From NCBI RefSeq assembly GCF_050920415.1, contig NZ_CP169309.1: a stretch of 64,000 nt of DNA. One strand, written 5' to 3'. A program made the translations under genes and the position numbers. The notes beneath the pieces were generated by a model, which saw only the letters and a program-made list of their open reading frames with translations, was not told the origin of the DNA and searched no databases. Source of the stretch: Escherichia coli (GTDB taxonomy: Bacteria > Pseudomonadota > Gammaproteobacteria > Enterobacterales > Enterobacteriaceae). This document shows positions 12,615-36,448 of this stretch, piece after piece (within the stretch, counting starts at the first letter, position 1; each line of letters opens with the position of its first letter).

Positions 12615-13296
12615 TTATGGATCTGTTGATTGTTTTAACTTACGTGGCGCTGGCATGGGCGGTCTTTAAAATCTTCCGTATTCCGGTGAATCAGTGGACG
12701 CTGGCGACGGCGGCGCTGGGAGGCGTTTTTCTGGTAAGCGGTTTGATTTTGTTGATGAACTACAACCACCCTTACACTTTTACCGCACAGAAAGCGGTGA
12801 TTGCTATTCCCATCACGCCACAGGTGACGGGGATCGTGACTGAAGTCACTGACAAGAATAATCAGCTTATTCAGAAGGGCGAGGTGCTTTTTAAGCTCGA
12901 CCCGGTACGTTATCAGGCGCGAGTCGACAGACTTCAGGCTGACCTGATGACGGCGACGCATAATATAAAGACGCTGCGCGCGCAGCTCACTGAAGCGCAA
13001 GCCAATACCACCCAGGTTTCAGCGGAGCGTGACCGCTTGTTTAAAAATTATCAACGTTACCTGAAAGGCAGCCAGGCGGCGGTAAATCCGTTCTCAGAAC
13101 GTGATATCGACGATGCGCGGCAGAATTTTCTCGCGCAGGATGCGCTGGTGAAAGGTTCGGTGGCGGAACAGGCGCAAATCCAGAGCCAGCTCGACTGTCA
13201 GCGCCAATGATATAAGACAGTAATTCACCATTTGGATTGTCCGCTCCACCCAACATGTTGTTTCCTTAAGGTTCCTACACCACAAAGGGAACACTC

Positions 13297-14343
13297 ATGC
13301 TGAGCAGAGAGGACTTTTACATGATAAAGCAAATGCGCCAGCAAGGTGCGTATATTGTTGATATTGCCACTCAGGTTGGTTGCTCTGAGCGGACTGTCAG
13401 ACGGTACCTGAAATACCCGGAACCTCCGGCCAGAAAAACACGCCACAAAATGGCCAAACTCAAGCCGTTCATGGACTATATCGACATGCGTCTGGCTGAG
13501 AATGTCTGGAACGGCGAGGTCATCCTGGCGGAAATCAAAGCGATGGGTTATACCGGTGGCCGTTCCATGTTGCGTTACTACATCCAGCCCAAACGTAAGA
13601 TGCGGCCATCGAAGAAAACGGTTCGCTTCGAAACTCAGCCCGGTTACCAGCTACAGCATGACTGGGGAGAAGTTGAGGCTGAGGTTGCCGGGCAACGATG
13701 CAGGGTTAACTTCGCGGTTAATACGCTGGGGTTCTCACGTCGCTTCCATGTCTTCGCGGCACCAAAGCAGGATGCTGAACATACCTATGAGTCACTGGTC
13801 CGCGCCTTTCGCTACTTCGGCGGCAGCGTGAAAACCGTGCTGGTCGATAACCAGAAAGCCGCAGTGCTGAAAAATAACAACGGGAAGGTGGTGTTCAACT
13901 CCGGGTTCCTGCTGCTGGCCGATCACTATGGCTTCCTGCCACGGGCCTGCCGTCCACGAAGGGCCAGAACCAAAGGTAAGGTGGAACGGATGGTGAAATA
14001 CCTCAAGGAAAACTTCTTCGTCCGGTACCGCCGGTTCGACAGCTTCGCCCATGTTAATCAGCTACTGGAGCAGTGGATGGCTGACGTTGCCGACAGGCGG
14101 GAACTTCGCCAGTTCAGGCAGACACCGGAACAGCGCTTCACGCAGGAACAGGTGCATCTGCAGGCGCTGCCAGGTACGGACTTCGATACCAGCTACTTCG
14201 ATATCCGTCATGTCTCCTGGGATGGCTATATCGAGGTTGGCGGGAACCGTTACAGCGTGCCGGAAAGCCTGTGTGGCCAGCCGGTATCAATACGGATCTC
14301 GCTGGATGATGAACTGCGATTTACAGTAATGAGCAACAGGTAG
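13297..14343 (+). CDS. istA: IS21-family transposase IstA, apparently frameshifted near its 3' end
   Basis: HTH N-terminus and DDE-like core. The ORF stops at 14343, but another frame continues ...[13 protein letters not shown] to a TGA at 14466-14468 that overlaps the istB ATG, the usual istA/istB junction. Confidence 0.7.
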   Translation: MLSREDFYMIKQMRQQGAYIVDIATQVGCSERTVRRYLKYPEPPARKTRHKMAKLKPFMDYIDMRLAENVWNGEVILAEIKAMGYTGGRSMLRYYIQPKRKMRPSKKTVRFETQPGYQLQHDWGEVEAEVAGQRCRVNFAVNTLGFSRRFHVFAAPKQDAEHTYESLVRAFRYFGGSVKTVLVDNQKAAVLKNNNGKVVFNSGFLLLADHYGFLPRACRPRRARTKGKVERMVKYLKENFFVRYRRFDSFAHVNQLLEQWMADVADRRELRQFRQTPEQRFTQEQVHLQALPGTDFDTSYFDIRHVSWDGYIEVGGNRYSVPESLCGQPVSIRISLDDELRFTVMSNR

Positions 14344-14455
14344 CATCGCACCGTCTCTGTTCGGCTGTATACGGCTGGCAGACCGTGCCGGAGCATCACG
14401 CCCCACTCTGGCAGCAGGTCAGTCAGGTGGAACACAGGCCGTTGAGTGCCTATGA

Positions 14456-15262
<807 letters not shown>

Positions 15263-15884
15263 TGACCAATAGCGGACATTAAAAATGGCGAAAAACGGCC
15301 AATAATCTTGGCGTTGACACGACAGTATGGTTAACGGTGAGCAGTCGCAGATTGTCAGCTTAAGGGCGCAGCTTACCGAAGCGAAATATAACCTTGAGCA
15401 GACCGTCATTCGCGCGCCGAGCAATGGCTACGTTACTCAGGTACTGATCCGCCCAGGTACATACGCAGCTGCCTTGCCGCTACGTCCGGTGATGGTTTTC
15501 ATCCCCGAGCAAAAACGGCAAATTGTCGCCCAATTTCGGCAGAACTCGCTGTTACGTCTGAAACCCGGCGATGATGCGGAAGTAGTGTTTAACGCGCTAC
15601 CTGGGCAGGTGTTCCACGGCAAACTGACTAGTATTTTACCTGTCGTGCCAGGTGGTTCGTATCAGGCGCAGGGGGTACTGCAATCATTAACCGTCGTACC
15701 CGGCACGGACGGTGTGCTGGGAACCATCGAACTGGACCCTAACGCTGATATCGATGCTTTACCCGACGGCATCTACGCCCAGGTGGCAGTTTACTCCGAC
15801 CATTTCAGCCATGTTTCGGTGATGCGGAAGGTGCTGCTAAGAATGACCAGTTGGATGCATTATCTTTATTTGGATCATTGAGGG

Positions 15885-16450
15885 GGGCGGGGGAGATTAT
15901 GGAACTTTGCTCCTTGTAAGGACTAATTATTTTTGCATATTACTTCATTGGCTGCGATGATTTTTCTTTAATATTCATTAGGTTGAGAAGTTCTTGATGA
16001 GTGTGCTCTCATTGGATTTTTTATCCGTCTTGTTCTGCCGCAGGATCAGACTATACATCGTCGAGATCGCAATGATTATGAATTGTTCCTCTGCGACGAT
16101 GCTAATCAAAAAAGTGCTGGAGTGCTTTTCCATCTATTGCGATGATGGTTTTATTATCTGAAGAATGACAGTCACACATCCAGCTAATAAAGAACTCGTG
16201 AAATTTTCCAGGACTGATACAGGACACAACTCTGGTAATGATATCGTGAATAGGAATACCATATTAAAAATCACCATATTGCTTCAACAAATCGAGATGA
16301 GTCTCACCAGAATCCTCTATATCTTCCCATCCTTCAGCTCCGGAAATGATGGCGAAAATAATCAGCACTAGGATATCTGATAATTTATACTCTACTTTCC
16401 AGACTTGTCTGTAATCGGGACAGTAGAAATATGCTCCATTAATTTTTTAA
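15885..16450 (-). pseudogene. Degenerate H-repeat (ISAs1-family) transposase remnant
   Basis: Minus-strand translation gives [11 protein letters not shown]..., then after stops and frameshifts ...AIDGKALQ...RRRGTIH...ELLNLMNIKEK, matching H-rpt transposase motifs as I recall them. Confidence 0.5.
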
Positions 16451-16915
16451 GTTCCATTTTTTCTCCTTGTTTATGTAAGGAGTGTCTGAATATATATAAG
16501 CTATGAAAACACTTATTAAATAATAAGGGATATCTTGATTATTGGACATTTAGTGCTAATTGTTTAGTGCAAAAAATCGGCGTTATATGGTCTTTACCTT
16601 TATTACCCTTGCTGTTTTCCTCCAGCCTATGAAAAGCCAGCTTCAGTAAATCGTACCGCCCGAACATTGTAAGATACAATTTACTGACAACTTAGTACAT
16701 TATTAATATCACATTTAAGCTTTTTTTTCAGATTATAAAGCCTGTCCACTTTATAATCTTTGCAATTATAAACGTATTCTTTTTTTGTTTTCATATCAAT
16801 GACACTAACCCCTCGCATGTTACTACCGTTGTCGTAATTGCTAAACACGGAGTACTTATATCCACTTTGAATAAAACTAACGCTAAAGTAATCCGTTTGA
16901 AATCTGGAGTAATGA

Positions 16916-17128
16916 TTATAAAAAATCCTGAATACATTGGTCCATCTGAAATGAATTGAAATTTATCCCATGCTGACTATTCATTTCATAAATCAACGTT
17001 TCACCAAAACTTGTTAATGACAAAGTTCCTTTGGATGTATTACATAAAAAATAATTATTTCCTGCGTTTAGAGTCCAGGGAATTCCAGATAAAAAAATAA
17101 AAATTAATGCTCTATCTATATTGCTCAT
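16916..17128 (-). CDS. Hypothetical small protein downstream of the orphan toxin fragment; possible immunity-gene remnant
   Basis: 70-aa ORF whose start overlaps the end of the orphan toxin ORF; AT-rich; no recognisable motif. Confidence 0.25.
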   Translation of the reverse strand: MSNIDRALIFIFLSGIPWTLNAGNNYFLCNTSKGTLSLTSFGETLIYEMNSQHGINFNSFQMDQCIQDFL

Positions 17129-18290
17129 AATTAGCCCTTATTCTGTCATCATATCCTCGCTGACTTTGCCCATTATAACATAGAGCAAAGTTAAGCCAAT
17201 CTTTATCTCTAATAGCACGCAATAATACAGGATTAGATTTTATGAAGTTAATGAATGCCGCCAGATGGTTTTTCTCTGACTCTGAAATCGATATTATAAA
17301 CTCTTCGGGCGAAGAGTACCCGGCAGCTTGGTAATTTGAAGCCAATATCTGAAATTTACCCCACGATGCCGATTTAAGCGCAGCTTGCTTATCTAAAACA
17401 TATGCACGAAGTAATTTTTGATATTGCTCCGATCGTGTTCCATAACCGCCAGAACGGCTGTTGGAAATATCAGGTTGAGAATCATACACACCATTCGTAT
17501 ATCGATGGAAATGATGTCTTTCAAAAAGAATTGAGGGGACGTAATCATCTTCTTGTTCAAATTTAAAATAGCTACCGGAACTACCAGTTTCAGTTTTTGC
17601 AACAGCTTTAATTGCAGCCACTTCGCATTGTAGTGTCCTTGCAGCATTTTCATAGTCTGCATCATCAATGGTATCTCCGTTATAAAATCGTAAAAATTCC
17701 AATGGAATAAGTTCATTATTTACAGGAGTTTTTGGGTAATTGCTATTATTAATAGCATTCAAAAACACAACCGGATGAAAATGCCACACAGCATCATCAC
17801 TATTAAACGGAGACACCCCGCTCATCCACTCCAGATCCAGCTGCCACTTTTCACAGTATGCCACTTCCTCGGGTCCAGATCTTTATAAAACCCTTCCCAG
17901 CGTCCCGTCGAGCGACCGCCGTACCACTCGCTGTGGTGTCTGACTGTCAGACGATTCACCACATTTCTCACCAGTGGTTCACGCACGGTCAGCGCCTGTC
18001 TGATCTCTTCCTCCGTCACTTTTCCATCACCGTCCTGATCCATACCCGCCATCAGCTCACGATAAAAGGGCGGTACCTGCTCATACAGCCACTCATCTCC
18101 CTGTTCTGCGGCACGGCTTATTGAGTCAAACGCTTCCGGCACCCATCCTTCGTACGGGCTGTACGTCATGTCACCGCTGCTGTTCTCCTCCAGCGGCTGA
18201 AAACCCAGCTTCAGTAAATCATACTGTCCGGCCTCTTCAACATCCTTCTGTGGCAGCCAGCCGGTTCCGGTGATATTAAGCCGCCTCTGG
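17112..18290 (-). pseudogene. Orphan 3' fragment of a VgrG-linked effector paralogue: EF-hand linker plus an alternative C-terminal muramidase-like domain, frameshifted near 17860
   Basis: ORFs 17822-18391 and 17112-17864 are collinear with residues about 383-556 of the 829-aa effector at 19290-21779 (NITGTGWLPQKDVEEAGQ...DQDGDGKVTEEE...AYCEKWQLDLEWMSGVSPFNSDDAVWHFHPVVFL), then diverge into a different C-terminal domain (...FERHHFHRYT...SWGKFQILASNY...). Confidence 0.55.
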
Positions 18291-18572
18291 TTTCCTTTTA
18301 ATAAAGCACTCGTGAAATTTTGCAGGACTGATACAGGATACAACTCTGGCAATGGTATCGTGAACAGGAATACCATTATCAAAATCACCATATTGCTTCA
18401 AAAAATCGAGATGTGTTTCCCCAAAATCCTCTATATCTTCCCAGCCTTCTGCACCCGAAATAACGGCACAAATAGTCAACAGTAGAATATCCGATAATTT
18501 ATGTTGCACTTTCCAGGCTTGTCTGTAATCGGGGATAATAGAAATATGTCCCATCAATTTTTTAAGTTCCAT
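18276..18572 (-). pseudogene. H-repeat (ISAs1-family) transposase N-terminal fragment, about 90 codons, fused to the orphan toxin fragment
   Basis: [60 protein letters not shown]... matches the N-terminus of H-rpt transposases; a second copy with its upstream sequence is repeated at about 16150-16600. Confidence 0.6.
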
Positions 18573-18873: not shown

Positions 18874-19284
18874 TCATCCAGTCCATTTGCAATCAGTACC
18901 ATCATCATTATATGCCTCAATATTTTCTTCAAACTCAGTTGTTTTCCCACTTATTGATTTATAATGAAACAAATTAAATCTTGCACCTTGTGTGGAAACA
19001 ACATACAACCCATTAATTTTTCCATTTACAACCTCGCTCCATGCATAAGAAAATTCAGAAGGCCTGTCATCGAAAGTCACTTCTAATTTATTTATAAACG
19101 CAAGAGGTATAAATTTTGAGGATTTCTCATAAATCACATAACCTAAAAAAATATCGCCAGACGATATTTCAACAAACTTTAAATTTGTTTTCCCAGCGCT
19201 AAAACAGCCTACCGTTGTTTGTTGTTTAGCCAATAAACAACAAGGCACCAAACAAAACAGTAAAACCAATAAGTTAACTTTCAT
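18874..19284 (-). CDS. Small secreted protein, putative immunity protein for the effector at 19290-21779
   Basis: N-terminal Sec-type signal peptide MKVNLLVLLFCLVPCCLLA; GGAG ribosome-binding site; starts 5 bp after the effector stop; AT-rich. Confidence 0.5.
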   Translation of the reverse strand: MKVNLLVLLFCLVPCCLLAKQQTTVGCFSAGKTNLKFVEISSGDIFLGYVIYEKSSKFIPLAFINKLEVTFDDRPSEFSYAWSEVVNGKINGLYVVSTQGARFNLFHYKSISGKTTEFEENIEAYNDDGTDCKWTG

Positions 19285-19289
19285 ATCAA

Positions 19290-21779
19290 TTACTCCAGTT
19301 CAGTTATTCGTCTCTCTACAAATGTGGATATATTCCTTTTTTCTATTCCATATACTTTTCTATCACCCTCACGCCCTTCCTGAGGAAACGGATGCAGGTC
19401 AATTAATTCTTTCGCCCTTCTATAACCTTTTAATGCTTCTTCGTTACTCTTGATCGTCCCTCTTCGGGAGCTATCAGGATCATGCCATATCCCCCATCCC
19501 AAAGCATATACTTTATTATCATATACGTCACTATCATCAAACAAGAAATCGTCGTTCATTGCTTTCTGATTTAAATGCTCGGCAGCAAGTGAGGTAACCA
19601 ATTTATTAAATATCGACAACCGTTCATCATAATGATTATACCCTCCATTAATCACTGCTGTAATTTTATTAAAATCATCATTTTTAGCATCTTCATTTAT
19701 TCTTTTGAATATATTGAAATACCAAAACGCAGATAATACGCAATGTGGGGAGGATATAAGTTTATCTCTTGCGGAATCTGAAGATGTTACGTCCTCATTG
19801 ATATATTCCCCATAGGCGGTGTAATTACTTTCCCCTGTAACTTGTATTAAGCCTCGGCCATACCACGGACTATATGAAGCTGATTCACCATTAATTTCTT
19901 TGGTATATCTAAAATAACCGCTCTCGTGAATAATTTGAGCAAGAAAATGGGCTTTTTCTCTACAAGTGGTCATACCAAACCGAATAAACCCTGCATTTAT
20001 ATCGTAGAGGTACCTTTTGAGAAGACCTTCACTTACTGCAGGAGCAACTTTTTTTAATTCATCTAATGTTATATCTCTGTTGCAAGCACACACAGATTTG
20101 GAATTAATAGCGTCCAAAAACACAACCGGATGAAAATGCCACACAGCATCATCACTATTAAACGGAGATACCCCGCTCATCCACTCCAGATCCAGCTGCC
20201 ACTTCTCACAGTATGCCACTTCCTCTGTGTCCAGATCTTTATAAAATCCTTCCCACCGCCCTGTCGAGCGCCCTCCGTACCATTCGCTGTGGTGTTTAAC
20301 TATCAGATGATTCACCACATTTCTCACCAGTGGTTCACGCACGGTCAGCGCCTGTCTGATCTCTTCCTCCGTCACTTTTCCATCACCGTCCTGATCCATA
20401 CCCGCCATCAGCTCACGATAAAAGGGCGGTACCTGCTCATACAGCCACTCATCTCCCTGTTCTGCGGCACGGCTTATTGAGTCAAACGCTTCCGGCACCC
20501 ATCCTTCGTACGGGCTGTACGTCATGTCACCGCTGCTGTTCTCCTCCAGCGGTTGAAAACCCAGCTTCAGTAAATCATACTGTCCGGCCTCTTCAACATC
20601 CTTTTGTGGCAGCCAGCCGGTTCCGGTGATATTAAACCACCACTGCTGCGATTCATCCGTGATCGGTGTCGTGGCTTCCCGCGGAAGAACGCGCTGAGCA
20701 CCCAGTGTGGCTGCGGTTGCGGTAAATACCTCCTGTCCCGGAACGGCCTGCCGGGTGTATAAAATTATCCCTTTTGGTGCCAGAACAGTCCGTTTTTCTC
20801 CCTTAACGCCTGCCGGGTTGGATAAGAACTTTGGCATATTCGGGTCTGTACTCAGAACCTCCAGATGGACGAACCACTCGCGCTCAATCTCACCGCTTCC
20901 CTCGCCAGGATAATCCTCGCATCCCATAAATCCGACCGGTGTTCCGGCACTGACTTTCCACTCTTCCGTTTCGTCGACCGTCTGTACCGAGTCAAAAATG
21001 CCTTTTGCCTTCGCCTTCTGCATCCACTCAGGCATCAGCATCTGTATTTCGCCATCTGACTCCATCAGATCCGGATCCAGGGTCACCCAGTACTGCTCAT
21101 TCCCCGGTTTATTGCCTTCCAGCAGGCGAACCAGTCCGAATGTCGTCAGGACCGGCTGGCCGTTATTGGTCACGTAAAAACGTCCGGTCCGGGATGACAC
21201 AAACCGATCTCCCGCATTAAGTGTCCTGTTTCCGCTGATTTTCGGGGGTATCCAGTACGTGGCATGATCTCCGCTTTCCTGCCCCTCGGGAAGGCCGTTC
21301 TTTCCCGGGATGTATCGGTGCAGCAATATGCCACCATGCCCGGTTTTAACTTTATAGCAGGGGGAGCCGGGATAATCGTTCACCGGGGCCAGATGCATAT
21401 AGAGACAGTAAAATTCCAGCCAGCTTTCTTTTTTTTGCGGGTCTGGCTGGCACTGCGATTTCACCAGAACAAATGTGCTGCTGTAACGGAGTTGCTGCCC
21501 TTTGTAGGTGCCTTTCAGGTAATCATTATTTATCCGGTACGCCGCAATGGTGCCATCGGCCATAAACTGAAGAGGAACCGGTTCTCCGGTAGCGGCGGTA
21601 TCCGGTTTCAGGGCTGATAACGGATTAGACACGTCACTGATATGTATCCCGCCGTGCCACAGCCCGTTTCCACCCAGCAGCCAGGTTCCGTGCGCTTCTT
21701 TGTCAATAAGCCGCATTATCTCATCCAGCGAGCGAAACTCTTTGCCTTCTTTATCCCTGATGGGATGGCTGATTTTCAT
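19290..21779 (-). CDS. VgrG-linked multidomain putative T6SS effector (829 aa): N-terminal M23-like region, EF-hand loop, C-terminal GH19-like glycoside hydrolase
   Basis: Starts 9 bp after the vgrG stop. WHGGIHI, LYMHL and GTPVGFMG...FVHLEV resemble M23 (lysostaphin/LytM) motifs; DQDGDGKVTEEE is a canonical 12-residue EF-hand loop; AHFLAQIIHESG...YGRGLIQVTGESNY resembles GH19 signatures. No signal peptide. Confidence 0.6.
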   Translation of the reverse strand: MKISHPIRDKEGKEFRSLDEIMRLIDKEAHGTWLLGGNGLWHGGIHISDVSNPLSALKPDTAATGEPVPLQFMADGTIAAYRINNDYLKGTYKGQQLRYSSTFVLVKSQCQPDPQKKESWLEFYCLYMHLAPVNDYPGSPCYKVKTGHGGILLHRYIPGKNGLPEGQESGDHATYWIPPKISGNRTLNAGDRFVSSRTGRFYVTNNGQPVLTTFGLVRLLEGNKPGNEQYWVTLDPDLMESDGEIQMLMPEWMQKAKAKGIFDSVQTVDETEEWKVSAGTPVGFMGCEDYPGEGSGEIEREWFVHLEVLSTDPNMPKFLSNPAGVKGEKRTVLAPKGIILYTRQAVPGQEVFTATAATLGAQRVLPREATTPITDESQQWWFNITGTGWLPQKDVEEAGQYDLLKLGFQPLEENSSGDMTYSPYEGWVPEAFDSISRAAEQGDEWLYEQVPPFYRELMAGMDQDGDGKVTEEEIRQALTVREPLVRNVVNHLIVKHHSEWYGGRSTGRWEGFYKDLDTEEVAYCEKWQLDLEWMSGVSPFNSDDAVWHFHPVVFLDAINSKSVCACNRDITLDELKKVAPAVSEGLLKRYLYDINAGFIRFGMTTCREKAHFLAQIIHESGYFRYTKEINGESASYSPWYGRGLIQVTGESNYTAYGEYINEDVTSSDSARDKLISSPHCVLSAFWYFNIFKRINEDAKNDDFNKITAVINGGYNHYDERLSIFNKLVTSLAAEHLNQKAMNDDFLFDDSDVYDNKVYALGWGIWHDPDSSRRGTIKSNEEALKGYRRAKELIDLHPFPQEGREGDRKVYGIEKRNISTFVERRITELE

Positions 21780-21788
21780 GTTCAGTCC

Positions 21789-23990
21789 TTATCGTGAGAA
21801 TCTTCCCGGCCGTTGTGGCGGTACCTTATCCTGCTGGGGAGGATCAAAGGCTTCCTGTACATTTTTCCGTGGTGGCTCCGCCCCTTCAGTTCCAGGTCCG
21901 CCATTGTCATAATCTGCCAGCGCTTTCAAAACCGCCGGTCGTAGTGTCGGCACCGGCGTTCCCGGACTACCGCCGCTATTGAGATTGATTTTCGGCCCGA
22001 CGATGTCCACGCCCCCTGAATGGATGACCACAAACGAACCACCCACCTTCAGGGTGATTTTACCGCCACTCTCCAGTACGATTTCATCCCGGACCTTCAT
22101 TCCCAGCGCACCGGTAATCTTCCTCGCCAGGTCGCCCTTCACCTCCAGACTGTGCGTTCCCTCCACCAGACTGATATGGTTCCCCGTCGTCTTATGCTCC
22201 TGCTTCCCTTCCACCGTCACTTTACGGTCGTTTCTGACATACAGGCCGTCATCGTGACTCACGCTCACCGTCCGGTCATTCGTCACCTTCAGCGTCTGGT
22301 CATTACGTACCGTTATGCGCCGGTCGTTCGCCACCGTGATACTCTGGTCGTGGCCCCCTTCTTTTCTGGTGCCGACCTCAACCGTCTGCCCCTTCACCAC
22401 CCTTATCTTCTGGTCGTTACCGATGGTCTCCGTATGGTCATGCTTCACGTCCGTCGTCCGGTCGTTAAGCACCTCCGTGTCCATGTTCTTCTGCGCGTGG
22501 ATATACACCTGCTCACTGTCCGTCGCATCCTCGAAACGCAGTTCATTAAAGCCGCTTCCTTTATAGGTCTTCGAGCGGATGGTCATCTGCGTCCGCGTGC
22601 CCGGTAAATCCCCCGGTGAACGGTTATCTTCATGGTAGGTCCGCCCCGTCACAATGGGCTGGTCCGGGTCGCCGTTCAGAAAGTCCACTATCACTTCCTG
22701 ACCCACACGCGGTATCGCCAGATTGCCGAACCCCGGTCCCGCCCATGCCTGCGACACCCGTATCCAGCATGAACTCTCCTCCGTCATCCCGTGATAACGG
22801 TCCCAGTGAAACTTCACCCGTACCCGGCCATGCTCGTCGCAGAATATCTCCTCGCCCTTCGGCCCGGTCACGATGGCACTCTGCGGGCCGTCCACCTTCG
22901 GCTTCGGCAGGGGCTGTGAGCGCCAGGTCCGGTCTGCCGGGATGACCGTGATATGGTTACTCAGTGTCGTTCCCCTCCCCTGGCTCCCGTGCAGCGCCTG
23001 CGGCTGGCTCCCCGTCAGCGTGCTGCTCACCACCTGCCACTCACGGTTCGGGTTCGCTCCCTGTACCGGATGCCCCGTCAGGGTGAACCGCCGTCCCGGC
23101 CACAGCGCCGGGGAGTTACTGATACCTGTGGCGGTTTCAGCACTGTTACGCAGCCCTTCCAGCCGGTAGCGGGTAAAGTCCTGACCATGCTGCTCGTCCT
23201 TGTAGCGCCCCGGCCAGTCCAGGATTTTGTACTGCTTCAGTTGCTCGTTGAGGTTTTCAGCATCCTCAATGTAAATACCCGGCCAGTCCGGCACCTTAAA
23301 CGTGTGGTCTTTTGAACGCACCTGCGAGGGCCGCACCTGCGCCTGGTAGCGGAACAGGCTGATGCACGCCGTCGTCACCTCACGGGTGTTCGGGTTAAAC
23401 GGTATCTCCCCGTACACCGGCAGGCCCGCCACATCATCGCACAGCGTGAGCGTCTGCTCCGGGCTGTCGTCAGCGTATCTGTCATAAAAGAAGATGCCTT
23501 CCTCCGCCCACAGCCGGGTCAGAAACGCCAGGTCGCTTTCACCGTACTGGACGCAGAACTCCCGTGCCGGGTGGCTCTCATAAAAGCGCGGCGTCCACTG
23601 CGTCACTCCGTCCTCGTTTAACAGCGTGGCGGAGATGGCCTGAATGTCCTGCTGCTGGAAGATTCGGTAGTTCTGCCGCAGCCCGCTGCGCCACAGGGGC
23701 GGGCGTATCTGAAGGTGGTACTGCATCTGCCAGCCGTTGTGCTCCTTCATGCCTAACCCCGACACCACACCGCTCACATAACGCAGCGCCGTGCCACCCT
23801 GCCAGATGGTCAGCACGGCCCCCTTCTCCAGCAGCTTCTCCGCCGTCTGGCGGAACGAGTCGCTGGCAACGTCCACATCCAGGACGAACGGCGATGAGTA
23901 TGCCTGCGTGAGGCGGAAATCCACCACCGCGAACGTCTCCGGCACCAGTCCGTCCACCGTCAGCGTAAAACGCAGCCCTTTTAATGACAT
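21789..23990 (-). CDS. vgrG: Type VI secretion spike protein VgrG (733 aa)
   Basis: MSLKGLRFTLTVDGL... N-terminus, gp27/gp5-like core with beta-helix repeats (VRNDQTLKVTNDRTVSVSHDD...), GGAGG-type RBS. Confidence 0.9.
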   Translation of the reverse strand: MSLKGLRFTLTVDGLVPETFAVVDFRLTQAYSSPFVLDVDVASDSFRQTAEKLLEKGAVLTIWQGGTALRYVSGVVSGLGMKEHNGWQMQYHLQIRPPLWRSGLRQNYRIFQQQDIQAISATLLNEDGVTQWTPRFYESHPAREFCVQYGESDLAFLTRLWAEEGIFFYDRYADDSPEQTLTLCDDVAGLPVYGEIPFNPNTREVTTACISLFRYQAQVRPSQVRSKDHTFKVPDWPGIYIEDAENLNEQLKQYKILDWPGRYKDEQHGQDFTRYRLEGLRNSAETATGISNSPALWPGRRFTLTGHPVQGANPNREWQVVSSTLTGSQPQALHGSQGRGTTLSNHITVIPADRTWRSQPLPKPKVDGPQSAIVTGPKGEEIFCDEHGRVRVKFHWDRYHGMTEESSCWIRVSQAWAGPGFGNLAIPRVGQEVIVDFLNGDPDQPIVTGRTYHEDNRSPGDLPGTRTQMTIRSKTYKGSGFNELRFEDATDSEQVYIHAQKNMDTEVLNDRTTDVKHDHTETIGNDQKIRVVKGQTVEVGTRKEGGHDQSITVANDRRITVRNDQTLKVTNDRTVSVSHDDGLYVRNDRKVTVEGKQEHKTTGNHISLVEGTHSLEVKGDLARKITGALGMKVRDEIVLESGGKITLKVGGSFVVIHSGGVDIVGPKINLNSGGSPGTPVPTLRPAVLKALADYDNGGPGTEGAEPPRKNVQEAFDPPQQDKVPPQRPGRFSR

Positions 23991-24145: not shown

Positions 24146-25060
24146 TTAATAATTCCTCAACGAATAAGGAGGAGATGCCCTGTCCCCATCAATAGTAACC
24201 ACGACCTGATTTGATCTTATTTTGAATATATTATCATTACCGCCATGATAGCCAAATCGTGCTAAAAAATCCTGAAATAGACCAGGTCCTCTATAAGGTC
24301 CACAGATTCTCCAAACCCGCCACTCCTCTATGCCATACGTTATTTTATCTATAGGATTAGTACACTCTCTTTCTGCCCGCCAGTTCATAATAGAAAGAAA
24401 ATACTCATATATATATTGTTCTGCAAACCACTCTTGATTAACTATTGTAAATTCTACCGTCCCTATATTATAACGATGAATGCCCGGTAAAAAGGCATAA
24501 TAATCGTTCAATGTGACATCAAAGGATAGCTCTTTCCCTGGTAATATCTCGCGCCAAACAGATTTACTTTTCCATTCACCAAAGCTACATTTTGTTTTTT
24601 TTAAAAAATCCAACTGAATGTTATCCATTATCGGTATAAACACACCACTACACAAGGAAGAGTAAGGCCCGCCGTTAACGTCAAGAGGAAGAGTTAGTCG
24701 ATGAACAAAATAAGATCCCTGGCTTTTATTCGATAAAACCACTGCAGCTGCTACAATATTTTCTTTCTGATGCACGGAAAGATGAAGATATATTTTATTT
24801 TTATCCTGATTATACTGACTCTCATTTTTACTGATAGTATAATATTGAAAAACAGCATAGGCTGAAAGATCATCATAATAATCATAATAATTAAGCCTTG
24901 TCGGTTCTACACGAGGATAGACACCAAGTTTTTCCATTACTCCATTCCAATGTAACTTCCCATATCTGTAATGAACCGCATAATCGCCAGAGATATCATA
25001 AGCAAATATTGGATGCACCCAAGAAAAAAAAGCAATAAAAACAATCCATCTAGCAAGCAT
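24146..25060 (-). CDS. Secreted protein with Sec signal peptide, putative immunity protein for the HExxH effector
   Basis: Start placed at the ATG at 25058-25060 (strong GGGGGAG RBS), giving MLARWIVFIAFFSWVHPIFA as signal peptide; 25 bp after the effector stop. Confidence 0.5.
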   Translation of the reverse strand: MLARWIVFIAFFSWVHPIFAYDISGDYAVHYRYGKLHWNGVMEKLGVYPRVEPTRLNYYDYYDDLSAYAVFQYYTISKNESQYNQDKNKIYLHLSVHQKENIVAAAVVLSNKSQGSYFVHRLTLPLDVNGGPYSSLCSGVFIPIMDNIQLDFLKKTKCSFGEWKSKSVWREILPGKELSFDVTLNDYYAFLPGIHRYNIGTVEFTIVNQEWFAEQYIYEYFLSIMNWRAERECTNPIDKITYGIEEWRVWRICGPYRGPGLFQDFLARFGYHGGNDNIFKIRSNQVVVTIDGDRASPPYSLRNY

Positions 25061-25084
25061 ATACTCCCCCGTCAAATAAAAGCA

Positions 25085-25930
25085 TCAATATGGTACAGGA
25101 ATCTCGAAATAACGTTCGATATTATATGCATTCTGAAACAGTTCTGATTTTTTATCATTTTTTAATTTAGTGGCATGAGCAATATATTCGTCACCTGTAC
25201 TATACTCTATATCTACCGGCATATCTTCCGTCCACATGCCTCCAAACTTAAGTGAATCCCCGTACCTTATAAAGTGAGATAGTTCATGGCAGAGTGTCGA
25301 TGCCTTAGAGTTTTCCCCAGTGAATGGCCTATCTATAAATCTTTGTCCTATAGTTATACTTACCAAACTTTTAAAGCTTCCAGATTTTACACCCAAAATC
25401 TGATCGTAAGTTACATTGGCAGCATAAGCGTCATTATCTGTACAATTCACAAAGTTACCAATTTTGGGCCTGATTACGTCTTTGTCAACATATTCATTAC
25501 CCCCTTTGTCATTAAGAACAAGATTACAATTGGCATCACGTTTGAGGAAATGGTCATGAACGGTAACGTCTACACAATCACCTTCCACAGATAATTCCCC
25601 ACATATCTCATACAGGCGAGTAACGCCATTTCTCATATAATCCCTTGCCTTTATATTCTCTGTAAACAGAGTATTACGCCCCCCGAAAGGGAACTTTAAT
25701 TTAATATAAGTATTTCCATCAATGCCAAATATATTTATAAATTCCTGATTTTGTTCCGCCCCCCATTTATCACCAAGATCTTCTACTCTTTTTTTCAATA
25801 CAGCCATCTGCGCCTTCAGAGCCTCTCTCATCATTATTTTAAAATCATTAGTAATTTTCCCCTCCTTTAAAACTACACACTGTTCACCACTCTGGCTTTT
25901 TCCGCTCGTACTACCCTTTTCATCTCCCAT
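25085..25930 (-). CDS. VgrG-linked putative zinc-metallopeptidase-like effector (281 aa, HExxH)
   Basis: CHELSHF (HExxH) at residues 215-219, with a possible downstream Asp ligand in STGDEY; hydrophilic N-terminus with no signal peptide; AAGGAGGA RBS; 81 bp after the vgrG stop. Confidence 0.5.
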   Translation of the reverse strand: MGDEKGSTSGKSQSGEQCVVLKEGKITNDFKIMMREALKAQMAVLKKRVEDLGDKWGAEQNQEFINIFGIDGNTYIKLKFPFGGRNTLFTENIKARDYMRNGVTRLYEICGELSVEGDCVDVTVHDHFLKRDANCNLVLNDKGGNEYVDKDVIRPKIGNFVNCTDNDAYAANVTYDQILGVKSGSFKSLVSITIGQRFIDRPFTGENSKASTLCHELSHFIRYGDSLKFGGMWTEDMPVDIEYSTGDEYIAHATKLKNDKKSELFQNAYNIERYFEIPVPY

Positions 25931-26011
25931 ATAAATCCTCCTTGGTATATATTTTCACTACAAACCCTGTTCCATTTATGCAAAAACACGCCAATTACAG
26001 GCGGTCACTCT

Positions 26012-28324
26012 CTATTCATTAATCCCTCCCCATATCATATCGATATTCAAATGCAACAATCTGACGTCTATTGTCTGCTCGCTGTCAGTGGTGAATATTT
26101 CCGTATACCCATCCTTATCCGTTTCTCCGCGGGTCTGCGTGCCGTCCTCAAAGAAGGCAATGTAGCGTGTCTCTGAATACGGTATCCCGTCATCGTCTGT
26201 AAAATGGAACTGGAGAGTATATTTTTCAGGGTTCTCATCATCATTCTCATCCTCCAGCGCCTCCAGTACAACCGGTTGCAGCGTCGATACTGGCGTCCCC
26301 GGACCTCCCCCACCATTCAGGTTTATCTTCGGCCCCACTATATCCACGCCGCCAGAGTGTATCACCACGAACGAACCGCCCGCTTTCAGGCTTATCTGGC
26401 TGCTGCTCTCCAGCACGATATCCCCGTCCACCTTTATCCCCAGCGCGCCACTCACCTTCTCCGCCAGGTCACCCTTCACCTCCAGGCTGTGTTTCCCCTC
26501 CACCAGGCTGATATGGTTTCCCGTCGTCTTATGCTCCTGCTTCCCTTCCACCGTCACTTTACGGTCGTTTCTGACATACAGGCCGTCATCGTGACTCACG
26601 CTCACCGTCCGGTCATTCGTCACCTTCAGCGTCTGGTCATTACGTACCGTTATGCGCCGGTCGTTCGCCACCGTGATACTCTGGTCGTGACCCCCTTCTT
26701 TTCTGGTGCCGACCTCAACCGTCTGCCCCTTCACCACCCTTATCTTCTGGTCGTTACCGATGGTCTCCGTATGGTCATGCTTCACGTCCGTCGTCCGGTC
26801 GTTAAGCACCTCCGTGTCCATGTTCTTCTGCGCGTGGATATACACCTGCTCACTGTCCGTCGCATCCTCGAAACGCAGTTCATTAAAGCCGCTTCCTTTA
26901 TAGGTCTTCGAGCGGATGGTCATCTGCGTCCGCGTGCCCGGTAAATCCCCCGGTGAACGGTTATCTTCATGGTAGGTCCGCCCCGTCACAATGGGCTGGT
27001 CCGGGTCGCCGTTCAGAAAGTCCACTATCACTTCCTGACCCACACGCGGTATCGCCAGATTGCCGAACCCCGGTCCCGCCCATGCCTGCGACACCCGTAT
27101 CCAGCATGAACTCTCCTCCGTCATCCCGTGATAACGGTCCCAGTGAAACTTCACCCGTACCCGGCCATGCTCGTCGCAGAATATCTCCTCACCCTTCGGC
27201 CCGGTCACGATGGCACTCTGCGGGCCGTCCACCTTCGGCTTCGGCAGCGGCGCGTGACGCCACGTCCTGTCTGCCGGTATCACCTCAAACTGATTGCTCA
27301 GTGTCGTCCCTTCACCGTGACTCCCGTGCAGCGCCTGCGGCTGTTCTCCCCGCAGTGTGCTTCCCACAACCTGCCATTCCCGGTTCAGCGTCGCTGACGG
27401 ATGGCCCGTCAGCCGGAACCGCGTTCCCGGCCACAGCCGCGCCGTGTTACACACCCCGCTCGCCGTCTCCGCCCCGTTCCGCCACCCTTCCGTCTGGTAA
27501 CGCGCAAAATCCTGGCCATGCTGCTCATCCTTGAAACGCCCCGGATAATCAAATATCTCGTACTGCGTTCCCTGTCCGTTCAGGCTCTCCCCGTCATGGC
27601 TGTAGTACCCCGGCCACCCCGGCGTTTTGAACGTATAATCCTGCGTCTCCACCGACGCCACGCTTATCTGCGCACGGTAACGGAAGTCGCGGATGTACTC
27701 TGTCGTGCCTCCGGTCGTGGTATTCGGGTTAAACGCCAGCGCCCCCATTCCCGTCAGCCCCGCCACGTCATCACACACCGCCAGCTTCTGTTCCGGCCCG
27801 TCCTGACTGCAGCGTTCATAAAAGAAGATACCTTCCTCCGCCCACAGCCGGGTCAGGAATGTCAGGTCGCTCTCCCCGTACTGCACGCAGAACTCCCGCG
27901 CCGGGTGCGCCTCATAGAACAGCGGCATCCACGCCGTCACCCCGTTCTCTTCAAGAAGCTGCGCTGATATCGTCTGAATGTCCTGCTGCTGGAAGATACG
28001 GAAGTTCTGCCGTAACCCTGCCCGCCACAGCGGCGGGCTGATGCTCAGGGAATAACGCATCTGCCAGTCGTTGTTCTCACCGAGCTGCACCTCTGTCACG
28101 ATACCGCTGACGTAACGCTGTGCAGTGTCGCCCTGCCAGACCGTCAGCACCGCGCTTTTCTCCAGAAAATCTTCTGCCGTCAGGTCAGACAGTCCGCTGG
28201 CGATATCCACATCCAGGATGAACGGTGTGCAGTGGTGCTGGTACAGACGGAAGCTCACCACCGCCGTCGCCATCTCCACAATACCGTCCACCGACAGCGT
28301 GAAACGTAATCCTTCTGCTGCCAT
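26012..28324 (-). CDS. vgrG: Type VI secretion spike protein VgrG with a divergent acidic C-terminal extension (about 770 aa)
   Basis: Start set at MAAEGLRFTLSVDG (ATG at 28322-28324); core nearly identical to the vgrG at 21789-23990; C-terminal 100 aa (...EDENDDENPEKYTLQFHFTDDDGIPYSE...) is unique. Confidence 0.9.
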   Translation of the reverse strand: MAAEGLRFTLSVDGIVEMATAVVSFRLYQHHCTPFILDVDIASGLSDLTAEDFLEKSAVLTVWQGDTAQRYVSGIVTEVQLGENNDWQMRYSLSISPPLWRAGLRQNFRIFQQQDIQTISAQLLEENGVTAWMPLFYEAHPAREFCVQYGESDLTFLTRLWAEEGIFFYERCSQDGPEQKLAVCDDVAGLTGMGALAFNPNTTTGGTTEYIRDFRYRAQISVASVETQDYTFKTPGWPGYYSHDGESLNGQGTQYEIFDYPGRFKDEQHGQDFARYQTEGWRNGAETASGVCNTARLWPGTRFRLTGHPSATLNREWQVVGSTLRGEQPQALHGSHGEGTTLSNQFEVIPADRTWRHAPLPKPKVDGPQSAIVTGPKGEEIFCDEHGRVRVKFHWDRYHGMTEESSCWIRVSQAWAGPGFGNLAIPRVGQEVIVDFLNGDPDQPIVTGRTYHEDNRSPGDLPGTRTQMTIRSKTYKGSGFNELRFEDATDSEQVYIHAQKNMDTEVLNDRTTDVKHDHTETIGNDQKIRVVKGQTVEVGTRKEGGHDQSITVANDRRITVRNDQTLKVTNDRTVSVSHDDGLYVRNDRKVTVEGKQEHKTTGNHISLVEGKHSLEVKGDLAEKVSGALGIKVDGDIVLESSSQISLKAGGSFVVIHSGGVDIVGPKINLNGGGGPGTPVSTLQPVVLEALEDENDDENPEKYTLQFHFTDDDGIPYSETRYIAFFEDGTQTRGETDKDGYTEIFTTDSEQTIDVRLLHLNIDMIWGGINE

Positions 28325-28539
28325 ATAAACCCCATAGCTACCGCACTCATAGTGCAAACCATACGGGCTTATAAGAAAGGCTTAAGTGAGATATCTGCCA
28401 GATAGCAACTATTAGGAAAATATTTATATCACCATGATAAATATGTGATTTATTGGGAGATAACAAACCATCAACATTTTCTGCCCTTTTTCCCATCACC
28501 AGGCCATACTGATATTTTTCCTCGCACAAAGGACTCGGC

Positions 28540-35835: not shown

Positions 35836-36021
35836 GTGAAAAGTGCAGACGTGATCGCCATCCTGAAGCAGCATGGCTGGGAACATATTCGAACCCGTGG
35901 TAGTCATCATCAGTTCCGCCACCCTGTCCATCCGGGTCTGGTGACGGTTCCGCACCCTAAAAAAGATATTAAGCCCGGTACGCTGGCGCAAATTGGGCGT
36001 CAGGCTGGTTTAACATTTTAA
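35836..36021 (+). CDS. hicA: HicA-family toxin (YcfA-like mRNA interferase), 61 aa, GTG start
   Basis: MKSADVIAILKQHGWEHIRTRGSHHQFRHPVHPGLVTVPHPKKDIKPGTLAQIGRQAGL matches the HicA pattern (GSHhqf...vtvPhH.kdlk.gtl..I..qaGl). Confidence 0.7.
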   Translation: MKSADVIAILKQHGWEHIRTRGSHHQFRHPVHPGLVTVPHPKKDIKPGTLAQIGRQAGLTF

Positions 36022-36037
36022 AATTTCAGGAGGCAAT

Positions 36038-36448
36038 ATGTTTTATCCCGCCTATATCCACAGTGATCCTGACGGCAGCGCCAGCGGTTTTTTCCCTGAT
36101 GTTCCAGGCTGTTATTTTGCTGGTGATACGCTGGACAACGCTTTCCAGGATGCGCGAAGTGCACTGGTCGCGCACTTCGAAACCTTATGCGAGATGAATG
36201 AAGAGTTGCCGCTTCCAGGCTCTGTGGAAACACATCTGGTCCAGCGTGCGCAGGACTTTATTGGCGGGCAATGGTTGCTGGTGGATATCAATATGAATCA
36301 GTTCGAAGGTCGGGCTGAACGTATCAATATTACGATGCCGAAAAGATTACTGAACAAGATTGATACCTACGTGCGCAATAACCCAGACTACGCCAACAGA
36401 AGTGCGTTTCTGGCGGAAGCTGCCCGGCGTGTATTGCCGGGCGTTTAA
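36038..36448 (+). CDS. hicB: HicB-family antitoxin with C-terminal ribbon-helix-helix domain (136 aa)
   Basis: Starts 17 bp after hicA; N-terminal HicB fold; C-terminal INITMPKRLLNKIDTYVRNNPDYANRSAFLAEAARRVL has RHH character. Confidence 0.65.
   Translation: MFYPAYIHSDPDGSASGFFPDVPGCYFAGDTLDNAFQDARSALVAHFETLCEMNEELPLPGSVETHLVQRAQDFIGGQWLLVDINMNQFEGRAERINITMPKRLLNKIDTYVRNNPDYANRSAFLAEAARRVLPGV

Follow-up and report, generated by a model that had tools for sequence, protein, structure and literature searches.

WHIX, named for its WHxxxH motif, has been described as a domain for T6SS secretion, loaded onto VgrG by way of its C-terminal tail (Fridman et al., PLoS Biol 2025, PMC12135965), and a chitinase-like/GH19 C-terminus is its commonest toxin class (2,242 proteins, PMC12135965). 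TseP from Aeromonas dhakensis, which is cited as a WHIX protein in the same paper (PMC12135965), is VgrG-linked and brings together an M23-like zinc site, a predicted EF-hand and a GH19-like lysozyme; the zinc site of its N-domain can be superposed on 3SLU, an M23 protein (Wang et al., eLife 2025, PMC11893102). These two key papers (PMC12135965, PMC11893102) disagree as to whether WHIX, or the N-domain of TseP (TseP-N), is itself toxic or catalytic. The WHIX paper contains no account of WHIX as M23-like and no mention of an EF-hand (PMC12135965).

An effector of this type was encoded on the minus strand of the 64-kb window of Escherichia coli DNA (the whole stretch that was analysed) by an ORF with an ATG start (19290..21779, 829 aa). 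The window was 100% identical to E. coli NZ_CP169399.1, in which the effector is WP_000703217.1, and this accession was present in supplementary files 8 and 28 of the WHIX paper (the tree and C-terminus files; PMC12135965). The effector is thus no novelty but a catalogued T6SS toxin of the WHIX/TseP type, aimed at the cell wall: the ORF, RefSeq and the supplements of the WHIX paper place it in WHIX subclass I, with which it shared the WHxxxH motif, a bipartite N-domain, a GH19 C-terminus, an upstream VgrG and a downstream signal-peptide gene, and nothing defining differed. An earlier note on this DNA had considered the architecture “unusual”, a view that does not hold for a protein of the published WHIX dataset, the same three parts having been characterised in TseP (PMC11893102). 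The allele was rare in E. coli (3 of 5,426 complete genomes) and its RefSeq naming was inconsistent (“hypothetical protein”, “chitinase” or “GH19 family protein”); NCBIfam gave no family for the effector, for the immunity gene or for any of the orphans described below. Effector homologues carried the same N-terminus of ~560 aa, followed by C-termini of the GH19, muramidase, GH108, pesticin-like, CHAP or M23+lysozyme types.

TseP resembled the effector in its architecture and in the combination of a higher-GC N-domain with a lower-GC C-domain (here 53% vs. 37%), but was distant: family representatives whose architecture is of the Aeromonas type were ~30-35% identical over the N-domain, and the C-domain here was a more compact GH19 variant with an added helical tail of 94 aa. 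The link to TseP rests on similarity to 8XCL (the crystal structure of the TseP C-domain), on the common architecture and on the citation of TseP in the WHIX paper; when TseP was sought among the family representatives, none showed the H19/H23 numbering, and the representative P0199 was rejected as TseP because its 8XCL match reached only an E of 5e-13. An EHEC paper mentioning WHIX, which cites it only for DUF1311 immunity, was irrelevant to the effector.

The effector started 9 nt past the stop codon of the upstream vgrG (21789..23990, minus strand; tssI in RefSeq), the gene for the spike protein that presumably carries it; the match of this ORF to TIGR03361 (E 7.5e-177) bore out the VgrG linkage that had been proposed from the sequence. 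The last 14 aa of the VgrG C-terminal tail (...KVPPQRPGRFSR, 21792..21833, minus strand) are presumed to be the WHIX docking peptide. This tail (...GRFSR) was similar to those of other WHIX-linked carriers, with C-termini ...ISR, ...NSR or ...LSR, and to the published tail of A. jandaei VgrG4 (...VSFSGR), which is needed for WHIX loading (PMC12135965). The ...RFSR ending also occurred in the Cronobacter VgrG encoded ahead of the effector's ortholog, a VgrG that otherwise differed from this one; the window's second VgrG ended in ...GGINE. The order vgrG-effector-small gene recurred in Cronobacter and at other loci, 4 of 5 having the same gap of 9 nt, and in Cronobacter and further bacteria the effector homologues sat within the core T6SS cluster; core T6SS genes were absent from the 64-kb window. 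The effector ORF was followed, after a gap of 5 nt, by an ORF for a putative periplasmic immunity protein (136 aa, 18874..19284, minus strand), the N-terminus of which was signal-peptide-like by inspection, whereas the effector itself had no signal peptide. Pfam and NCBIfam scans of the 136-aa protein were without match, and it was 60% identical (E 4e-60) to the gene next after the Cronobacter ortholog of the effector. GC content fell along vgrG, WHIX, toxin and immunity gene (60, 53, 37 and 33% respectively).

The WHIX domain (aa 1-560, 20100..21779, minus strand) combined a helical subdomain with a beta core that was M23/LytM-like and bore insertions, and residues 1-562 were modelled as a single module (pTM 0.91). 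Its conservation was bipartite, with distant relatives matching residues ~1-145 and ~250-560. The WHxxxH motif that defines WHIX (WHGGIHI, residues 41-47, 21639..21659, minus strand) was conserved in an alignment of 102 diverse relatives (W41 in 98, H42 in 101 and H46 in 101). LYMHL (residues 126-130, 21390..21404, minus strand), the counterpart of xYxHL in M23, retained Y127 in 97 and H129 in 77 of these relatives, H129 being substituted in the other 25; and EREWFVHLEV (residues 299-308, 20856..20885, minus strand), the counterpart of the HLHFE strand, retained both H305 and E307 in 101. A further conserved motif, WHFHP (residues 547-551, 20127..20141, minus strand), closed the WHIX domain (W547 in 95, H548 in 96, H550 in 92 and P551 in 100 of the 102), and GTPVGFMG corresponded to residues 279-286. 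All the motifs quoted in the earlier note were located at the residues it gave.

The N-domain had an M23/LytM-like fold, with conserved His/Glu residues of a putative zinc site on an M23-like scaffold, and we infer that H42, H46, H129, H305 and E307 cluster in one metal site. It differed from M23/LytM proteins (PF01551; LytM, lysostaphin, NMB0315/3SLU, EnvC) in several respects: the canonical HxxxD and HxH motifs were not kept, H42xxxH46 standing for HxxxD and F-V-H305-L-E307 for HLHFE, and the leading His of HxH having given way to Q, F or Y at residue 303; the motifs were separated by large insertions; and the chemistry reported for TseP is that of an amidase, not of an endopeptidase. The H46-H129 and H129-H305 gaps were 83 and 176 residues, the equivalent gaps in classical M23 domains being roughly 45 and 30 residues. 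The claim that the motifs are “spaced like an M23 peptidase” was therefore right as to their order but, because of the large insertions, wrong as to their spacing. PF01551 gave no match to the effector even at E<=10, and a profile of the 102 family members run against PDB sequences found no M23 chain and weak EF-hand matches only. A local hhalign comparison of the spliced WHIX core with a small alignment of genuine M23 domains, together with a lysostaphin sequence, gave a P of 3.3e-4 at only 38% probability and is a lead only; its register was unreliable at WHxxxH but plausible at the H305-x-E307 strand, where the M23 motif aligned its second His with H305 and its Glu with E307. Metal ligands are generally lost in degenerate LytM domains. 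The near-invariance of the putative metal residues in 102 diverse relatives therefore argues against a decayed pseudo-enzyme.

The EF-hand loop DQDGDGKVTEEE (residues 462-473, 20361..20396, minus strand) was detected with Pfam EF-hand_1 (E 4.8e-4) and with PROSITE PS00018, and was flanked in the model by helices 452-460 and 471-479. The canonical EF-hand described earlier was upheld and is no mere coincidence: DQDGDGKVTEEEI fitted the full PS00018 pattern, with ligands at positions 1, 3, 5 and 12 and Gly at position 6, and this pattern had only 2 matches in the six-frame translation of the window, one in the effector and one in the downstream duplicated fragment. Conservation of the loop among the 102 relatives was partial (D462 in 75, E473 in 79), and invariant residues were found on either side of it, within the conserved second half of WHIX. 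The EF-hand is not a linker, because it lies inside the conserved WHIX module; the “calcium-regulated linker” suggested previously is accordingly not supported, residues 1-562 forming one module and EF-hand mutations in TseP having had no detected effect on assembly or toxicity (PMC11893102).

The toxin was a compact GH19-type lysozyme domain (aa ~570-735, 19575..20072, minus strand), with E619 and E628 as candidate catalytic residues. It was identified by phmmer against PDB (9ms7, E 1.7e-13; 4ok7, 5.6e-10; 8xcl or TseP-C, 5.8e-8) and by Foldseek, which at a probability of 1.0 matched chitinases and endolysins of GH19 (TM (target) 0.52-0.76) and also 8XCL (E 2.1e-5), so that the resemblance to GH19 noticed earlier proved to be one of fold. 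PF00182 (GH19, Pfam) matched residues 634-677 only, below threshold (E 0.084), and several effector homologues bore precomputed PF00182 matches. E619 was kept in 45 of 59 sequences, and E628 was also present in the effector. The GH19-like signatures AHFLAQIIHESG and YGRGLIQVTGESNY occupied residues 610-621 and 640-653. The stretches HES...E, GRGxIQ(V/L)TG..NY and INGG, like the fold and the candidate pair E619/E628, were common to the domain and to GH19 endolysins and chitinases (SPN1S endolysin 4OK7, PWe2 9MS7, Pseudomonas aeruginosa GH19 endolysin 9EOI); the difference is that the domain was here joined to a secretion domain, and is probably delivered by a T6SS. Its GC content was 36.7%, vs. 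53% in WHIX. The helical C-terminal tail of 94 aa (aa 736-829, 19293..19574, minus strand) was seen in the structure model with a pLDDT mostly of 74-95, beyond a low-confidence hinge (738-745), and occurred only together with the compact GH19 variant (7 proteins of the set examined).

These data make it very probable that the protein is a subclass I WHIX (TseP-family) T6SS cargo effector working in the following way. By homology with Awe1/VgrG4, and given the conserved tail, the ~560 N-terminal residues would dock on the ...GRFSR tail of VgrG, and the effector would therefore ride the spike out of the attacker. The GH19-type domain would then cleave the glycan strands of peptidoglycan in the prey periplasm, as expected from TseP-C and the GH19 endolysins. 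The WHIX metal site may add a second activity, that of a Zn-dependent amidase as in TseP-N, a point contested in the literature. The 136-aa signal-peptide protein probably acts as the periplasmic immunity protein, judging from synteny and co-conservation.

The TseP model, in which the N-domain would be at once an active Zn-dependent amidase and a loading domain, and the effector would cleave peptide stems as well as glycan strands, falls only just short of an even chance. TseP-N and two homologs release tri-/tetrapeptides from peptidoglycan, an activity abolished by EDTA and restored by Zn, and the amidase of TseP-N was reduced by mutating H19, H23, H109, H339, H359 or E539 (PMC11893102); in the family studied here the fold was M23-like and H42, H46, H305 and E307 were each kept in all relatives except one. 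However, the WHIX domain of Awe1 alone was non-toxic in the E. coli periplasm (PMC12135965), a mutation in the lysozyme site mitigated the periplasmic toxicity of TseP (PMC11893102), and both the replacement of H129 in a quarter of the relatives and the absence of canonical HxxxD and HxH count against catalysis. The altered ligand motifs would equally suit a pure adaptor, that is, a catalytically dead M23-like module which only binds the VgrG tail and whose histidines hold a structural metal or touch the tail. WHIX alone is enough for secretion, requires the VgrG tail and is non-toxic by itself (PMC12135965), and the proposal in the earlier note that an altered M23 module serves “binding or delivery” anticipated the role of WHIX as a T6SS loading domain. 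We nevertheless lean somewhat against a module that does nothing else, since an amidase activity is on record for TseP-N as well as for two homologs (PMC11893102) and a His/His/His/Glu set that is complete and invariant is more to be expected where a metal site is functional; for the same reasons the term “pseudo-enzyme” is not retained. The family-wide invariance of H42, H46, H305 and E307 bears on the dispute over WHIX catalysis. It can also be speculated, as a long shot, that the M23-derived metal groove of WHIX is the deep cavity for the ...F-S-x-R tail of VgrG, the tail mimicking a substrate and so holding the amidase latent as long as the effector is loaded, and that the EF-hand, free of Ca in the cytoplasm of the attacker and bound to Ca in the periplasm of the prey, senses the compartment and aids release and activation; if true, this would reconcile the reports of a non-toxic secretion domain with those of a Zn-amidase, but the EF-hand mutants published for TseP had no phenotype (PMC11893102).

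Control of the two enzymatic modules, or of release from VgrG, by the EF-hand in response to Ca2+ is in itself unlikely. The loop was canonical and conserved in roughly 60-80% of the family representatives, and EF-hand proteins were the only PDB matches of the family profile, though weak ones (E >= 0.012); but the EF-hand lay in the WHIX fold and not in a linker, was single and unpaired with a local pLDDT of 58-73, and lacked key loop residues in at least a quarter of the relatives, and in TseP its mutation was without detected effect and Ca2+ failed to restore amidase activity (PMC11893102). That the protein has nothing to do with a T6SS, being an endolysin of phage descent or a hydrolase for cell-wall housekeeping that is placed by chance beside vgrG, is hardly credible. 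By sequence, the C-domain matched phage endolysins best in the PDB, and one Salmonella homolog was labelled “bacteriophage protein” by its source; against this, phage genes were absent nearby, the coupling to vgrG was tight, Cronobacter and further bacteria had homologues within their core T6SS clusters, more than 98% of the genomes with WHIX have a T6SS (PMC12135965) and the effector, unlike the neighbouring gene product, had no signal peptide. A prophage origin of the effector was rejected on genomic context.

The WHIX effector was followed downstream by remnants of related genes, all on the minus strand. An ISAs1 transposase remnant (18300..18572, RefSeq annotation) separated the active cassette from an orphan (17112..18289) in which a WHIX 3′ fragment ran on into sequence for an N-acetylmuramidase toxin (PF11860, the Pfam Muramidase family, E 6.5e-46). 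The WHIX fragment was 96% identical to nt 1135-1677 of the effector (blastn, 521/543), with a 1-bp deletion near 17872, and the orphan aligned collinearly, at 98%, with a WHIX-muramidase gene that is intact in a different E. coli (L004). Next came the frameshifted remains of the orphan's immunity gene (16681..17128), recognised by comparison with L004, whose intact 145-aa immunity gene was broken in the window into three small ORFs. Since a WHIX 3′ end is fused to a muramidase in the orphan, toxin replacement by recombination is indicated, and the locus shows that WHIX effectors swap toxins when their 3′ ends recombine, leaving orphan modules. Comparison of the sequences shows that the low-GC toxin + immunity cassette was acquired by recombination within the WHIX 3′ region, displacing an older muramidase toxin that now decays downstream. 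Orphan 3′ fragments, or a change of toxin by this route, are not described in the WHIX paper (PMC12135965). The orphan modules of Rhs/CdiA loci are similar in that there, too, a conserved 3′ part of the carrier gene has been copied downstream, where it is linked to another toxin + immunity pair, but here the carrier was a WHIX cargo effector, the orphan toxin and its immunity gene were both frameshifted, and ISAs1 remnants abutted the fragments. A WHIX 3′ fragment older still had left a vestige of 53 bp (16610..16662), which was 85% identical to nt 1194-1246 of the effector and occurred in L004 too.

The ORF at 19290..21779 (minus strand, ATG start, 829 aa) was confirmed, and all the motifs quoted from it in the earlier note were found at the residues assigned to them, the EF-hand coordinates (20361-20396) being exact. 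The encoded effector, WP_000703217.1, is included in the tree and C-terminus files of the WHIX paper (PMC12135965). An M23-like N-terminal part, an EF-hand and a GH19 domain are the known signature of the WHIX/TseP family; both the family and this exact accession have been published, and the effector is therefore already known. The domain calls of the earlier note were sound, but not its descriptions of the protein as “unusual” and of the EF-hand as a “linker”. WHIX (Fridman et al.) is a bipartite N-terminal domain named for its WHxxxH motif, described in 4,434 proteins from genomes almost always harboring a T6SS, with mostly peptidoglycan-targeting C-termini, of which chitinase-like domains are the biggest class (PMC12135965). 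TseP, the Aeromonas dhakensis effector with a C-terminal lysozyme (Wang et al.; PMC11893102), was counted among the secreted WHIX proteins (PMC12135965).

The effector gene is preceded by a vgrG (21789..23990, minus strand; TIGR03361 E 7.5e-177), whose stop codon lies 9 nt ahead of the effector start, and followed, 5 nt beyond its end, by a putative immunity gene (18874..19284, minus strand) encoding 136 aa with a signal-peptide-like N-terminus. The window spans lldP to xylG of the E. coli chromosome and is 100% identical in strain MFDS1022581; the vgrG islands lie between yibF/selA on one side and yibH/yibI/mtlA on the other. GC content falls stepwise (vgrG 60%, WHIX 53%, toxin 37%, immunity 33%), paralleling the GC step reported between the parts of TseP. 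The effector allele is rare: either half of the gene was matched in only 3 of 5,426 complete E. coli genomes.

When all 1.84 billion representatives were scanned with residues 1-562, 693 relatives were retrieved (E<=1e-3), the distant ones aligning in two stretches, as fits a bipartite domain. With 102 aligned, diverse relatives (26-73% identity) as input, these residues were modelled at a pLDDT of 91.8 and a pTM of 0.91, and so make up a single compact module. The M23 module proposed earlier was upheld as a likeness, and TseP's N-domain superposes on 3SLU, an M23 protein (PMC11893102); by its sequence, however, the N-domain falls outside Pfam M23. PF01551 did not match the effector, NCBIfam returned no family for it, and the family profile found no M23 chain in the PDB. 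The effector has HxxxH instead of the canonical HxxxD, FVHLE instead of the HLHFE strand, and a motif spacing stretched by large insertions. In the 102-sequence alignment, H42, H46, H305 and E307 were each conserved in 101 sequences, W500 in all 102, H496 in 100, H548 in 96, H550 in 92 and H129 in 77. This near-invariance argues for a working metal or ligand site, at which these residues would cluster, rather than for the decayed pseudo-enzyme considered in the earlier note.

The GH19-like C-terminal part was corroborated by sequence and by structure. Although Pfam GH19 remained below threshold (E 0.084), residues 605-732 matched PDB sequences of GH19-type endolysins (9ms7, E 1.7e-13; 4ok7, 5.6e-10) and 8xcl (E 5.8e-8), the crystal structure of the TseP C-domain from Aeromonas dhakensis. 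With the full-length AlphaFold2 model (pLDDT 84.4), Foldseek gave a probability of 1.0 to GH19 endolysins, TseP-C, and plant and bacterial GH19 chitinases. The candidate catalytic pair, E619 and E628, is present. The domain is followed by a confidently modelled helical tail of 94 aa (aa 736-829; 19293-19574, minus strand) with no family match, found only in proteins with the compact GH19 variant.

In close homologs the N-terminal ~560 aa were constant, and the C-termini were GH19, N-acetylmuramidase, GH108, pesticin-like, CHAP or M23 plus lysozyme. Homolog P0020 and its relatives carry a genuine Pfam M23 domain and a phage-type lysozyme C-terminal to WHIX, a single protein thus combining the M23-like core of WHIX with a canonical M23. 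A Cronobacter ortholog (64% identical) lies directly after vgrG in the core T6SS cluster, and the next gene shares 60% identity with the window's putative immunity gene. At three further loci the WHIX gene immediately follows vgrG, preceded in one by a PAAR gene. WHIX is enough for T6SS secretion, provided that the upstream VgrG retains its final ~14 residues; the tail of A. jandaei VgrG4 (...VSFSGR) was required experimentally (PMC12135965). The tails of the spike proteins encoded just ahead of WHIX genes in the window and in loci L003, L007, L008 and L009 resemble it: the window's VgrG (tail at 21792-21833, minus strand) ends in ...GRFSR, and ...NRFSR, ...GLISR, ...GRNSR and, in a PAAR protein, ...ALLSR were also found. 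The tail was ...YLFSE in the more distant locus L011, and ...GGINE in the window's M35-linked VgrG.

The most likely mechanism is one in which WHIX would bind the VgrG tail and be carried out with the effector on spike firing, the GH19 domain would hydrolyse glycan strands in the prey periplasm, and the 136-aa periplasmic protein would shield the producing cells and their kin. Whether WHIX contributes catalysis divides the remaining readings. That it may also be a Zn-dependent amidase has nearly an even chance: TseP-N was reported as such an enzyme, active in vitro, its activity lowered by mutation of H19, H23, H109, H339, H359 or E539 (PMC11893102), but the WHIX of Awe1, an effector carried by VgrG4, was not toxic in the periplasm (PMC12135965). 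A WHIX acting purely as an adaptor, without catalysis, is plausible, if somewhat short of even.

The EF-hand itself is canonical: the loop DQDGDGKVTEEEI agrees with the full PROSITE PS00018 pattern, Pfam EF-hand_1 matched the effector (E 4.8e-4), and in the six-frame translation of the window the pattern occurred only twice, in the effector and in a duplicated downstream fragment. It is not a linker, because invariant parts of the WHIX domain flank it. The loop was less conserved (E473 in 79, D462 in 75 and G467 in 63 of the 102 sequences), and a calcium switch is improbable, since mutating the EF-hand predicted in TseP had no detected effect (PMC11893102).

Downstream of the immunity gene, beyond an ISAs1 remnant, lie 543 bp that duplicate effector nt 1135-1677 at 96% identity, the EF-hand included; this copy carries a 1-bp deletion and continues into an N-acetylmuramidase domain. 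This orphan (17112-18289, minus strand; PF11860 E 6.5e-46) is accompanied by its frameshifted immunity gene (16681-17128, minus strand) and an older 53-bp WHIX 3' vestige (16610-16662, minus strand). In another E. coli assembly, L004, the WHIX-muramidase gene at this chromosomal site is intact and is accompanied by an immunity gene for 145 aa; L004 nt 29-1683 are 98% identical to window 21757..20103, and nt 1141-4112 are 98% identical to 18289..15320. By this collinearity, the window is the L004 arrangement into which a block has been inserted, consisting of the GH19 toxin, the immunity gene and the ISAs1 remnant, with the WHIX 3' end duplicated at the block's flank. Both the toxin that was displaced and the immunity gene belonging to it carry frameshifts. 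This is toxin replacement in the style common to Rhs and CdiA; the WHIX paper makes no mention of recombination or displacement (PMC12135965).

ISAs1 remnants (about 15961-16457 and 18300-18572) bracket the orphan modules; in strain RMDEC465 (L002) a fragment of vgrG, together with an S-type pyocin and the pyocin's immunity gene, comes after a full ISAs1. Nearby, yibH (HlyD-type; region 12617-15881) is interrupted by the IS21-family element ISEc62 (about 13297-15262). A second vgrG cassette (24146-28357, minus strand) comprises a VgrG with a differing C-terminal extension (26012-28357), a 281-aa HExxH protein (25085-25930), annotated by RefSeq in other strains as an M35 family metalloendopeptidase, and a 309-aa ORF (24146-25075), which may be its immunity protein or partner, all on the minus strand. 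A HicA/HicB toxin-antitoxin pair (35836-36448, plus strand; RefSeq annotation of the identical genome) lies downstream of aldB.
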